Position numbers: made by a program. DNA of 64,000 nt from positions 29,725 to 93,724 of the forward strand of contig CAZHOB010000002.1 of the NCBI GenBank assembly GCA_964534465.1. The letters are read 5' to 3'. This document shows, piece by piece, positions 27,001 to 30,000 of the stretch (its first letter is position 1; every line of letters starts with the position of its first letter). The stretch comes from an uncultured Candidatus Saccharibacteria bacterium. Lineage in GTDB: Bacteria > Patescibacteriota > Minisyncoccia > Phycocordibacterales > UBA2100.

Positions 27001-30000
27001 GATAAAAAGGCGATAGAGGACCTCAAGAAAAATATTGAACGCAGTGGTGGAAAAGCTGTCGGTTTCGTGGGCGAAATTGCCCGTCCGGACGTTGCGAAGA
27101 AAGTTGTCGGCGCAGTCATCAAAAAATTCAAGCGCATAGATATTCTTGTGAACATGGCTGCTATTCAAAAACCGATCGGTCTTTTTGGGACGGACGACAT
27201 GAAAACATGGAAGCGAAATATCGAGGTAACACTGCTGGGCACTGTGAATTTCGCTCATGCAGTCCTCCCGCACATGTTGAAACAAAAGAGCGGCACCATA
27301 GTCAATTTCGGGGGCGGTGGCGCCAGCGGGCCGCGGCCACATTTTACTTCCTATGCCGTGGGAAAAACGGGCATCATCAGATTTACTGAAACACTTGCTG
27401 CTGAATTGAAAGGCACCGGTGTGCGCGTCAACGCGGTTGCGCCGGGCACCATTCATACACCTTTGCTTGAAGAGATAGTGCACGCCGGAGTGAAAGCGGG
27501 CGCTGAAGAGTATCGCCGCGCAAAAGAACTCGTCGAGAAAGGCACGACGTCGGCGCAAGTCCCCGCAGACCTCGTCCTTTTTCTTGCATCTAATGATTCG
27601 CACACCCTTTCCGGCAAACTTATTGCTGCTATATGGGATGGTTGGCGCACATGGAGCAAGAAAGATATCGAGAAAATTCAAGCGAGCGACGCGTGCACTC
27701 TTCGCAGGGTCAATCCATGAAGCGGCCGTACACCATCGCCGTCGTAGGTCTGTGGCACTTGGGAGAAGTGTATTCCGCGTGTTTGGCAGAACTTGGGCAC
27801 AAAGTTGTCGGGATCTCCGACGATACCAAAGTTATCGCTAATTTCAAGAAAAATATACCGCCTCTCATTGAGCCGCGGGTGCCGGAGCTTCTTCTGAAGA
27901 ACCAAAAAGCGGGGAATCTCTCGTACACCACGGATTGGGAAGCCATTCGCAGTGCCGATGTGGTATGGATCTCGTTCGACACGCCCGTCAATGAGAAGGA
28001 TGAGGTGGATATCTCTCCCGTAACCAATGCGATCAAAAAAGCACTGCCCCTGTTGAAGCAGAACGTCGTACTCGCCATTTCAAGCCAGATCCCCGTCGGT
28101 ACATCAAAAAAGATCTGCGATTCCATCCGCAAGGCTCGCCCCGAGCTGTCATTTTCATATTTCTATGCGCCGGAAAATTTGCGAATCAATGATGCGGTCA
28201 GGATCTTTTTGGAACCGGAACATATCGTTCTTGGCTATGATTCTCATAAGGCGCTCGATGCCGCGAAAGAGATCTACGGTAATTTGAGCGAGGCCTTTGT
28301 GGCCATGTCGCCGGAATCCGCGGAAATGACCAAGCATGCCATCAATGTATGGAATTCGGTCTGCACCAGCTTTACCAACGACCTCGCCGACCTCTGTGAG
28401 GCGACCGGCGCTGATGTCGAAGACCTAATACGGGCTTTTAAAAAAGATCAGCGCTTTGGGAAAAAGACATACCTTTTTGCCGGCACCGGATACTCCGGTG
28501 CTTCTCTAGCCCGCGACGTAAAGGCGCTCCTGAAGGCAGCGCGCGCCCATAAGCTCAAAGTCCCCGTGATAGAAGGTGCCGATAAAAAGAACAACAGCCG
28601 TGGCGATATCGTGCGGATCCGTCTCGCGAAAACGCTCGGAAAAATAAAGGGCAAGACCGTCGCGCTTTTTGGCGTAACGTTTAAAGCGGGCACTTCGACG
28701 CTCCGCCGCTCGCGTCCGCTCGAAATAGAAGCGCAATTGCGAAAAGCGGGAGCCCGCGTGCGTTTGTACGACCCGATGGCAATTCCTGCGGAAGTGGGCG
28801 AGCAGACTCCGTCGCCTTTTTTCCGCGATCCCTACGAAGCGGCTCGTGGCGCGGACATCGTGCTCATCATGACGCCCTCGCCGGATTACCGCAGTCTTGA
28901 TTTCAAGAAACTCAAACGCGTCATGTCAAAGCCCCTGCTGTTCGATACGTGCAATATATTGCCGAGCGTCGAGAAAGAGCTCTCTGCGGCAGGATTGTCT
29001 TACATGCGTGTAGGTAGGTAAAAGATCAGTCTTTATTTTTTTTTGATGCTTTCGCGATAAGAGCGGTCGTCGATATTTTCTCGCCACGCTCATCATTGAG
29101 CACAGGGCACACGACGATCTCTATCTCGTCGGGCACATCGTCGTTTTTCCTAATGAGCGCTTCCATGTCGACGTGCTCTGCACCTTTTACGATGATGTGC
29201 GGCATGATCTCACGCACGACGCGATTAGTGCGCATTTCGTCGAATATCACGACCTCATCCACGAGGCCGGTGCGTAGCAAGGCGTCCTTCCGCCGCTCTT
29301 GATCATGTATCGGTCGCGCCGGACCCTTCAGCAGTTTCGTACTTACGTCGGAATTGAGACCCACGATGAGCGTGTCGCCGAGCGACCCTGCGAATTTGAG
29401 GAGCGAGATGTGACCGGGATGCAAGAGGTCAAAAACACCGTTCGCGAAGACGATTTTACCCTTCTCTCTGCGCTTTTTCGGTTTTCTAACCGTCATAACG
29501 GCCATGGTATGATGCCCGCAAACGTATGTCTACCGTGAGCCCGACATTGTGTCCTTTGTGCAAGGCGGATATGCCGAGTATCACGGGGCGCACGCATGTC
29601 GACGGCGTTACCACGTACACACAATATGAGTGCGGGAATTGCCTCGTCCAATTCTGGTGGCCGCTTAAGAATCCGGGGGCGGATTGGTATAAGAACCATG
29701 AGAAATACGGTACGCGCAACGCAGATCCTGTGTGGAGTGCCAATACGAATCACAAGAAAACGCTTTCATTTCTCGCCGAACATAAGGGCTCTGTTTTTGA
29801 TGTCGGGTGCGGCATTGGCAACTTTCTTTCCGAAGCAAAGGAAAGAGGGTGGCAAATATCGGGAATTGACTTCGACCCCGATGCGATCGCGTCGGCAAAA
29901 AAGGTGACCGGCTCGGGTGATCTCGAGGCAAGCAACGTGACCGATTACGTGGCTCGTCATCCCGAAAAAAAGTTCGACCTCGTTACGTTTTTCGATGTGC

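Follow-up and report, generated by a model that had tools for sequence, protein, structure and literature searches.

The 64,000-nucleotide stretch analysed here (the window) comes from contig CAZHOB010000002.1 of an uncultured Candidatus Saccharibacteria bacterium, has a GC content of 51.5% and carries on its forward strand a gene for a protein of the UDP-glucose dehydrogenase (UGDH) family that has no Cys at the catalytic position (Table 1). This open reading frame, hereafter the target, translates as quoted in the initial annotation. A longer version starting at 27633 was rejected, homologues beginning 4-6 residues ahead of the IAVxGLWHLG segment. The ATGA overlap with the upstream gene, which encodes a classical short-chain dehydrogenase/reductase (SDR), was also found as described, the start codon of the target lying at 27717-27719 and the stop codon of the SDR at 27718-27720.

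The three-domain layout assigned to the target was confirmed by matches, all above their cut-offs, to PF03721 (112 bits), PF00984 (79.7 bits) and PF03720 (85.4 bits), and its score against NCBIfam TIGR03026 is 300 bits (cut-off 189.8). It lies far under the cut-off of every UGDH, WecC or TviB equivalog model, TuaD for example giving 258 bits against a required 700. An AlphaFold2 model of the target has a predicted local distance difference test score (pLDDT) of 95 and, when compared by Foldseek with the solved structures of BceC, UgdG and human UGDH (hUGDH), yields template modelling scores of 0.88-0.92. The matches found by phmmer among PDB sequences include UgdG of Sphingomonas (4a7p, E-value 5e-72), a Porphyromonas enzyme (3gg2) and BceC (2y0e). 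Identity to solved UGDHs sharing the three-domain fold (4a7p UgdG, 2y0c BceC, 3gg2 and 2q3e hUGDH) is 25-37%, and the target also shares with UGDHs a length of the bacterial, dimer type, the active-site Lys, Asn, Asp and first Glu, and the nucleotide-binding residues of the C-terminal domain. A tblastn search of plasmids returned canonical UGDHs only, at 34-37% identity. The N-terminal Rossmann signature, described initially as the usual one, turned out to be altered: GxGxxG reads G11-L-W13-H-L-G16, with Trp at the place of the second Gly.

The loss of the catalytic Cys is well founded. The phmmer alignments set GYSGASLARD opposite GYGGSCFPKD of 4a7p, 3gg2 and 2y0e with the top posterior probability, identifying the region as the catalytic loop and placing Ser263 at the Cys, and a MAFFT alignment concurs. 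Neither of the other Cys residues considered as replacements can serve: C216 (in SVCTSF) is unconserved, and C227 (in DLCEAT) corresponds to a structural Cys of canonical UGDHs in the interdomain helix alpha10. The statement that the site has no thiol holds as far as the Cys is concerned; a potential nucleophile is nevertheless still there, in the form of the substitute hydroxyl of Ser263.

In hUGDH the conserved active site consists of Thr131, Glu161, Lys220, Asn224, Cys276 and Asp280, the coenzyme gate is formed by Tyr14, Glu161 and Glu165, the last of these bonding the nicotinamide carboxamide, and Asp36 is the determinant for NAD (PMC3129169). The target keeps Glu153 (the equivalent of Glu161), Lys206, Asn210 and Asp267, and has Gln124 at the position equivalent to Thr131.

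These features recur in a large family of at least 392 relatives; the counts given here cover 392 homologues, Trp13 having been scored in 387 and deviation ranked in 371. The signature of this clade comprises W13, H14, D88, S123-Q124, E153-N154, K206-H207, N210, R266-D267, K323 and T328-L-R-R-S332, all of which the target possesses; it departs from the family in having Ser263 instead of Thr, and Ile157-Asn158 instead of Leu157-Gly158. Orthologues lack the Cys as well, its position being occupied by Thr in 382 of the 392 (97%), by Ser in seven (2%) and by His in two. Gln124, Glu153 and Arg266 occur in all 392, Asp88, Lys206 and Asn210 in 391 each, His207 in 389, Asp267 in 388, Leu157 in 387 and Asn154 in 382, while Trp13 is present in 375 of the 387 scored and His14 in 384 members. 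In three members GxGxxG is restored by a Gly at position 13, the rest of the signature being kept. An acidic residue is found at the hUGDH Asp36 position (the end of strand beta2, where it binds the adenosine ribose), or at the next residue, in 371 of the 392; T89-P90 is conserved across the family, and the nucleotide-binding residues K323, R330 and D352 are retained. Relative to hUGDH, therefore, the family keeps Glu161, Lys220, Asn224 and Asp280 and replaces Cys276, Thr131 (by Gln), Tyr14 (by His), Glu165 (by Leu, or Ile in the target) and Lys279. In terms of motifs, where canonical UGDHs have GxGxxG, PEF-LRE, KY, GGxCxxKD and TDDxRxxP, the clade has GxWHxG, PEN-LRL, KH, GGTLxRD and TxTLRRS.

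The best 120 homologues, which are 44-68% identical to the target, are from Patescibacteria bins, and nearly all of them carry GLWHLGE and GLGFSGGTLGRD. A profile search was made of 1.84 billion cluster representatives and its best 150 matches examined: more than 140 of these carry the clade signature, many with a high-GC composition, and the four or five Cys-bearing proteins among them have GxGYVG, Thr and Glu instead, indicating that the signature residues change as a block. Searches that started from P0229 and P0247, both of high GC, extended the clade to Chloroflexota, Dehalococcoidia, Rokubacteria, Acidobacteriia and Spartobacteria, all with the signature, which is also borne by a member from an actinobacterial Jatrophihabitans bin. 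The clade thus spans Patescibacteria, Chloroflexota, Acidobacteriota, Actinomycetota and others. One high-GC member, P0213 (714 amino acids), carries at its N-terminus a GT2 glycosyltransferase as fusion partner in place of an SDR; its subgroup has WHQG and PEF, not WHLG and PEN. With 392 homologues showing these substitutions in combination, the loss of the Cys goes beyond chance, and on the evidence of the alignments the target is no lone oddity but part of a large conserved clade in which that loss accompanies a co-ordinated remodelling of the pocket and of the cofactor loop (W13, H14, D88, Q124, N154, L157, H207 and R266). No Pfam or NCBIfam model separates the clade; its members bear the database names ‘UDPglucose 6-dehydrogenase’ or ‘nucleotide sugar dehydrogenase’, and the cluster names are only generic.

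The strict retention of a hydroxyl at the Cys position, together with the invariance of Glu153, whose hUGDH counterpart is the hydrolysis base, would be expected of a four-electron, uronate-forming dehydrogenase in which Ser or Thr263 served as covalent nucleophile, by way of a hemiacetal and an ester. We think such an enzyme very improbable. Mutants of the human and streptococcal enzymes with Ser in place of the Cys (C276S hUGDH and C260S SpUGDH) lose at least 10,000-fold in rate and come to a halt at a stable ester (PMC3129169), the relay of water through Thr131 and the residues of coenzyme exchange have been replaced along with the Cys, and uronate-using enzymes are not conserved nearby.

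The SDR encoded immediately upstream is 33-39% identical to the SDRs adjoining homologues of the target. Such a gene lies next to the UGDH-like gene in the window and in L004, L006, L008, L012, L013 and L014, and the two are fused in the order SDR-UGDH-like in P0116, P0123, P0166 and P0223 and in the reverse order in P0197 and P0241. Fusion in both orders is strong evidence that the UGDH-like protein and the SDR act together. To judge from this gene organisation the SDR is an obligate partner of the UGDH-like domain, and the pair is the invariant core of the cassettes described below. The partner SDRs (those of the window, L004, L006, L008 and L012-L014, and of the six fusions) retain TGxxxGxG, NxAG and YxxxK; in most of them the expected catalytic Ser is replaced by Gly, in N-F-x-G-G-G, and they have in common a C-terminal extension, (S/A)A-x-W-D...Y/F-x-x-R-R. 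They look like an uncharacterised subfamily of their own.

Seven loci, on contigs of both the Candidate Phyla Radiation (CPR) and other bacteria (L002, L004, L008, L013, L014, L016 and L017), share a single cassette around the homologue of the target, made up of an extended-SDR epimerase, a GHMP kinase, a small transaldolase, a SIS isomerase, a HAD phosphatase, an NTP-transferase and a Gfo/Idh/MocA oxidoreductase. The closest relative on a long contig (L012, 67% identity) has adjacent SDR and UGDH-like genes with one base in common, followed by genes for a transaldolase, a PfkB kinase, an RpiB-RfaE-II fusion, an epimerase, a Capsule_synth protein and an ABC transporter; Gfo/Idh/MocA is missing there too. 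Fusions of transaldolase and SIS isomerase occur at two of the loci (5806-7161 in L014 and 7508-8863 in L017), which implies that the transaldolase supplies a ketose phosphate to the isomerase. In the RpiB-RfaE-II fusion (9914-10801 in L012) a true ribose-5-phosphate isomerase is joined to the adenylyltransferase, a combination that hints at ribose 5-phosphate as acceptor, by analogy with the octulose-8-phosphate reaction of LmbR. Transaldolase apart, the Pfam set of the cassette is also that of the GDP-D-glycero-alpha-D-manno-heptose pathway, and in L004 the kinase is HddA-like and the phosphatase GmhB-like, both scoring under the cut-off. From their gene content the cassette loci may act on a heptose or on an octose.

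This context bears on a further alternative, an NDP-hexose 6-dehydrogenase (NDP standing for nucleoside diphosphate) that would oxidise the primary C6 hydroxyl once and pass the hexodialdose to the SDR or to another enzyme. Without the thiol the two oxidations of a UGDH would come apart, and the Lys, Asn and Asp that have been kept could perform the first. The surroundings are, however, always those of a higher-carbon sugar, with transaldolase or transketolase, SIS or GmhA isomerase, anomeric kinase and nucleotidyltransferase, and not those of hexose activation; the transaldolase-SIS fusions point to chain extension on sugar phosphates rather than on an NDP-aldehyde; and C276A hUGDH still makes UDP-glucuronic acid, about 18,000-fold more slowly, and releases no aldehyde (PMC3129169). 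We consider release of an aldehyde unlikely. A related scheme, in which transaldolase or transketolase would extend an NDP-hexose 6-aldehyde made by the target, was rejected in view of the transaldolase-SIS fusions, the RpiB-adenylyltransferase fusion and the exchange of transaldolase for transketolase among close relatives, an exchange that fits the supply of a ketose phosphate and not extension at the nucleotide level.

Table 1. The target gene, two of its loops and neighbouring genes in the window.
Feature	Position	Strand	Basis or remark
Cys-less UGDH-family protein (target), member of the GxWHxG / GGTLxRD clade	27717..29021	+	434 amino acids plus stop
Cofactor loop G11-L-W13-H14-L-G16, replacing GxGYVG	27747..27764	+	Alignment to solved UGDHs
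Catalytic loop G258-Y-S-G-A-S263-L-A-R266-D267; Ser263 codon 28503-28505	28488..28517	+	phmmer and MAFFT
Partner classical SDR, 276 amino acids from probable start ATG 26890	26890..27720	+	Pfam adh_short, 162 bits
RfaE-domain-II-like heptose-1-phosphate adenylyltransferase	29026..29505	-	TIGR02199, 116 bits, under cut-off of 181.5
S-adenosylmethionine (SAM) methyltransferase	29526..30488	+	Pfam match
GT9 heptosyltransferase-family glycosyltransferase	30512..31768	+	PF01075, 75 bits; TIGR02195, 75.9 bits
HldD-like NDP-heptose 6-epimerase (extended SDR)	31765..32649	+	TIGR02197, 235 bits (cut-off 274.6)
GmhA-type sedoheptulose-7-phosphate isomerase	32773..33351	+	TIGR00441, 207.7 bits (cut-off 209.45; 2 bits short)
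Short PfkB kinase, RfaE-domain-I-like	22655..23425	-	PF00294; TIGR02198, 100 bits (cut-off 345)
Split transketolase	23427..25068	-	C-terminal half 23427-24305; thiamine diphosphate (ThDP)-binding half 24310-25068
Zn-dependent alcohol dehydrogenase	25065..26093	-	Domain-model matches
Second classical SDR, divergent from the SDR-target pair	26138..26878	-	Domain-model matches

In the window itself, a tblastn search with the cassette proteins of the relatives picks out three genes only: the target, the partner SDR and, with weak similarity, an epimerase, the last being the HldD-like gene 2.7 kb downstream of the target. The other roles of the cassette are represented by different families, namely transketolase, PfkB, RfaE-II, GmhA, HldD-like and GT9 proteins (Table 1), and next to the target gene in the window there is neither a GHMP kinase nor an aminotransferase. 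Judged by these families the pathway most likely leads to an ADP-activated heptose. The PfkB kinase, split transketolase, Zn-dependent alcohol dehydrogenase and second classical SDR form, in that map order, a divergent operon on the reverse strand; its alcohol dehydrogenase and SDR occur in none of the relatives' cassettes seen.

A second UGDH-family protein is encoded at 1564-3519 on the forward strand (651 amino acids). A GT1 glycosyltransferase domain is fused to its NAD-binding and central domains; the protein lacks the C-terminal nucleotide-sugar domain and, unlike the target, keeps GQGFIG, KST, PEFLSE, KYSHN and GGHCFIKD, including the Cys. Nearly all of the 64 kb is given over to glycan biosynthesis, with many GT4 and GT1 enzymes, at least five extended-SDR epimerases or dehydratases, an asparagine synthase, a UbiA-family protein, an ABC exporter (33355-35214) and a Capsule_synth protein (35221-36666). 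Between 38109 and 50001 lies a set of nonulosonic-acid type, comprising a PseB/Polysacc_synt_2 protein (38109-39098), NeuB with a SAF domain (39128-40174), a DegT aminotransferase (46348-47487) and a CTP_transf_3 protein (49258-50001). Among these genes lie others for an ATP-grasp protein, a ThDP enzyme resembling acetolactate synthase in type (42123-43733), a HAD protein, a CBS-epimerase fusion, a TylF methyltransferase and an aldo-keto reductase. At 6954-9800, on the reverse strand, a 948-residue fusion combines the N- and C-terminal domains of a carbamoyltransferase with a SAM methyltransferase; L013 has a stand-alone carbamoyltransferase after its cassette.

Three roles had been suggested for the target: a binding-only paralogue, a two-electron oxidoreductase and an enzyme with another nucleophile. 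The second fits best, given the invariant Lys206, Asn210, Asp267 and Glu153, the acid at the end of beta2 in 371 of the 392 homologues and the context of seven- and eight-carbon sugars; the other two are retained as rivals to which we assign lower probability. Specifically, and with moderate confidence, we favour a two-electron, NAD-linked dehydrogenase of UGDH fold that would act on the side chain (at C6) of an NDP-heptose or NDP-octose and work with the SDR; the substrate, the position oxidised, the use of NAD and the sequence in which the two proteins act are what we infer from the observations above. In the window the substrate would most likely be an ADP-heptose, and in most relatives an NDP-octose or NDP-heptose. 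The C-terminal domain would hold nucleotide and ring in the manner of UGDH, with C6 beside Lys206, Asn210 and Asp267, the Lys remaining as the base for alcohol oxidation and the Asn and Asp as oxyanion partners. The chemistry of UGDH is aimed at C6, which in higher sugars is a secondary alcohol, so that hydride transfer would produce a 6-ketone and stop there. The thiohemiacetal, the thioester, the hydrolytic water and the double exchange of coenzyme would all become dispensable, a ketone product needing neither thiol nor hydrolysis; this would account for the appearance of Thr or Ser in place of the Cys and of Gln in place of the Thr that holds the water. Gln124, Asn154, His207 and Thr or Ser263 would contact the extra C7 and C8 hydroxyls. 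The 6-keto product would be handed to the translationally coupled SDR and reduced by it; where a Gfo/Idh/MocA protein is present, the ketone might serve as a handle for dehydration, by analogy with LmbL and LmbZ.

The intact fold with all three domains, and the presence in the window of GmhA-, RfaE-I/II-, HldD- and GT9-type genes, support a side-chain dehydrogenase, and the beta2 acid, T89-P90 and the three Gly13 members speak for the retention of NAD. Several observations weigh against such a dehydrogenase. The second Gly of GxGxxG normally touches the pyrophosphate of NAD in Rossmann folds, and here it is Trp; the nicotinamide carboxamide binder Glu165 of hUGDH is Leu in the family and Ile in the target; Tyr14 has become His and Lys279 Arg. 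The Gfo/Idh/MocA oxidoreductase and the transaldolase typical of most relatives are missing from the window, as judged by tblastn with cassette proteins; a pair that oxidised and then reduced C6 would partly duplicate the role of an HldD-type epimerase; and a full-text literature search found no biochemical data on any member of the clade. The same search found no publication on the motifs of the clade, on a Cys-less UGDH clade or on the cassette.

The changes at Gly13, Tyr14, Glu165 and Lys279 all fall on coenzyme-handling residues, and may be taken together with the obligate pairing or fusion with an SDR that keeps the NAD(P)-type motifs TGxxxGxG, NxAG and YxxxK and with the presence of a further NAD enzyme, Gfo/Idh/MocA, in most cassettes. 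They raise the possibility, which we regard as doubtful though worth keeping in mind, of a non-redox subunit that has lost exchangeable NAD binding and kept the NDP-sugar site and, for acid-base catalysis, the Lys, Asn, Asp and Glu. It would then be a dehydratase, acting by elimination or tautomerisation, or the half of a complex that presents the substrate, with the SDR, with or without Gfo/Idh/MocA, carrying out the redox chemistry. Without a dinucleotide, however, there would be little reason for the acid of beta2 in 371 of 392 homologues or for the conserved T89-P90, three members have gone back to Gly13 with the remaining signature intact, and the general-base Lys is invariant.

A last point against the favoured dehydrogenase concerns the target in particular, which deviates at eight of the 47 positions conserved in at least 95% of the family (L55V, L157I, G158N, L213N, A214S, F259Y, T263S and Y322F). 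This makes it the second most deviant of the 371 members ranked, only two of which deviate as much, and is the observation that would speak for a decaying, non-functional paralogue. Set against decay are the intact reading frame and the pLDDT of the model, the retention of every core signature residue, the conservative nature of six of the eight deviations, the translational coupling to a conserved partner and the clear constraint on a family of 392 members, and we think it extremely unlikely. The eight deviations are in keeping with a changed substrate in the lineage of the target, relaxed constraint being a less likely cause.

Comparison with known systems places the clade apart from UGDHs in its pairing or fusion with an SDR and in a context of heptose or octose instead of uronic-acid use. 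LmbL, of the lincosamide octose pathway, is by analogy the only plausible characterised relative. LmbL and CcbL are reportedly UGDH-family proteins that, with the Gfo/Idh/MocA proteins LmbZ and CcbZ, bring about 6,8-dehydration of a GDP-octose. The genes of the pathway specify the transaldolase LmbR, isomerase LmbN, kinase LmbP, phosphatase LmbK, nucleotidyltransferase LmbO, epimerase LmbM, dehydrogenase LmbL and NAD(P) oxidoreductase LmbZ, and LmbM, LmbL, CcbZ and CcbS convert GDP-octose to GDP-lincosamide (PMC4351081, PMC12945683). The enzyme classes of this pathway match those of the homologues' cassettes completely. The clade differs in its additional, obligate SDR partner, which has no counterpart in the tables of the lmb cluster, and the window differs from that cluster in having no Gfo/Idh/MocA, transaldolase, GHMP kinase or aminotransferase beside the target. 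Homologue searches seeded with the target, P0229 and P0247 returned no Streptomyces lmb or ccb protein and none named Lmb or Ccb, and a genome scan for G-x-W-H-L-G-E-x-[YF] as coded at high GC gave two chance matches only; the Glu in this pattern, Glu17, is conserved in the CPR subgroup only. HldD (ADP-L-glycero-D-manno-heptose 6-epimerase) and LmbM resemble the target, as proposed here, in that their redox chemistry, too, takes place at C6 of a higher sugar linked to a nucleotide. They differ from it in being extended SDRs of unrelated fold with a cofactor that does not dissociate.

Hundreds of entries belonging to this clade are named ‘UDP-glucose 6-dehydrogenase’, with which enzyme their residue pattern is incompatible, and UDP-glucuronate synthesis inferred from them is therefore wrong. 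The clade constitutes a natural experiment, a UGDH active site from which the thiol, the water relay and the canonical P-loop have been removed, and the pair, being two small soluble proteins, is amenable to assay with ADP- or GDP-heptose. Syntheses of both these compounds have already been published. More speculatively, we suggest as a possibility, though not a probable one, that the clade represents an unrecognised class spread over several phyla, in which a UGDH scaffold, formerly four-electron and coenzyme-exchanging and now with NAD fixed beneath a Trp13 lid or with none, is obligately complexed with an atypical SDR, usually without the catalytic Ser, for dehydration, deoxygenation or epimerisation in the side chain of NDP-heptoses or NDP-octoses. 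If this were so, the envelopes of Patescibacteria, Chloroflexota and other groups would commonly contain modified eight-carbon (or deoxy seven-carbon) sugars, and the octose pathway of lincosamides would have been recruited, as a copy, from a primary glycan pathway of wide occurrence. In many uncultivated lineages the clade is the marker of a conserved cassette for nucleotide-activated seven- or eight-carbon sugars, and octose chemistry, so far seen only in lincosamide antibiotics, may be widespread in cell-surface glycans.

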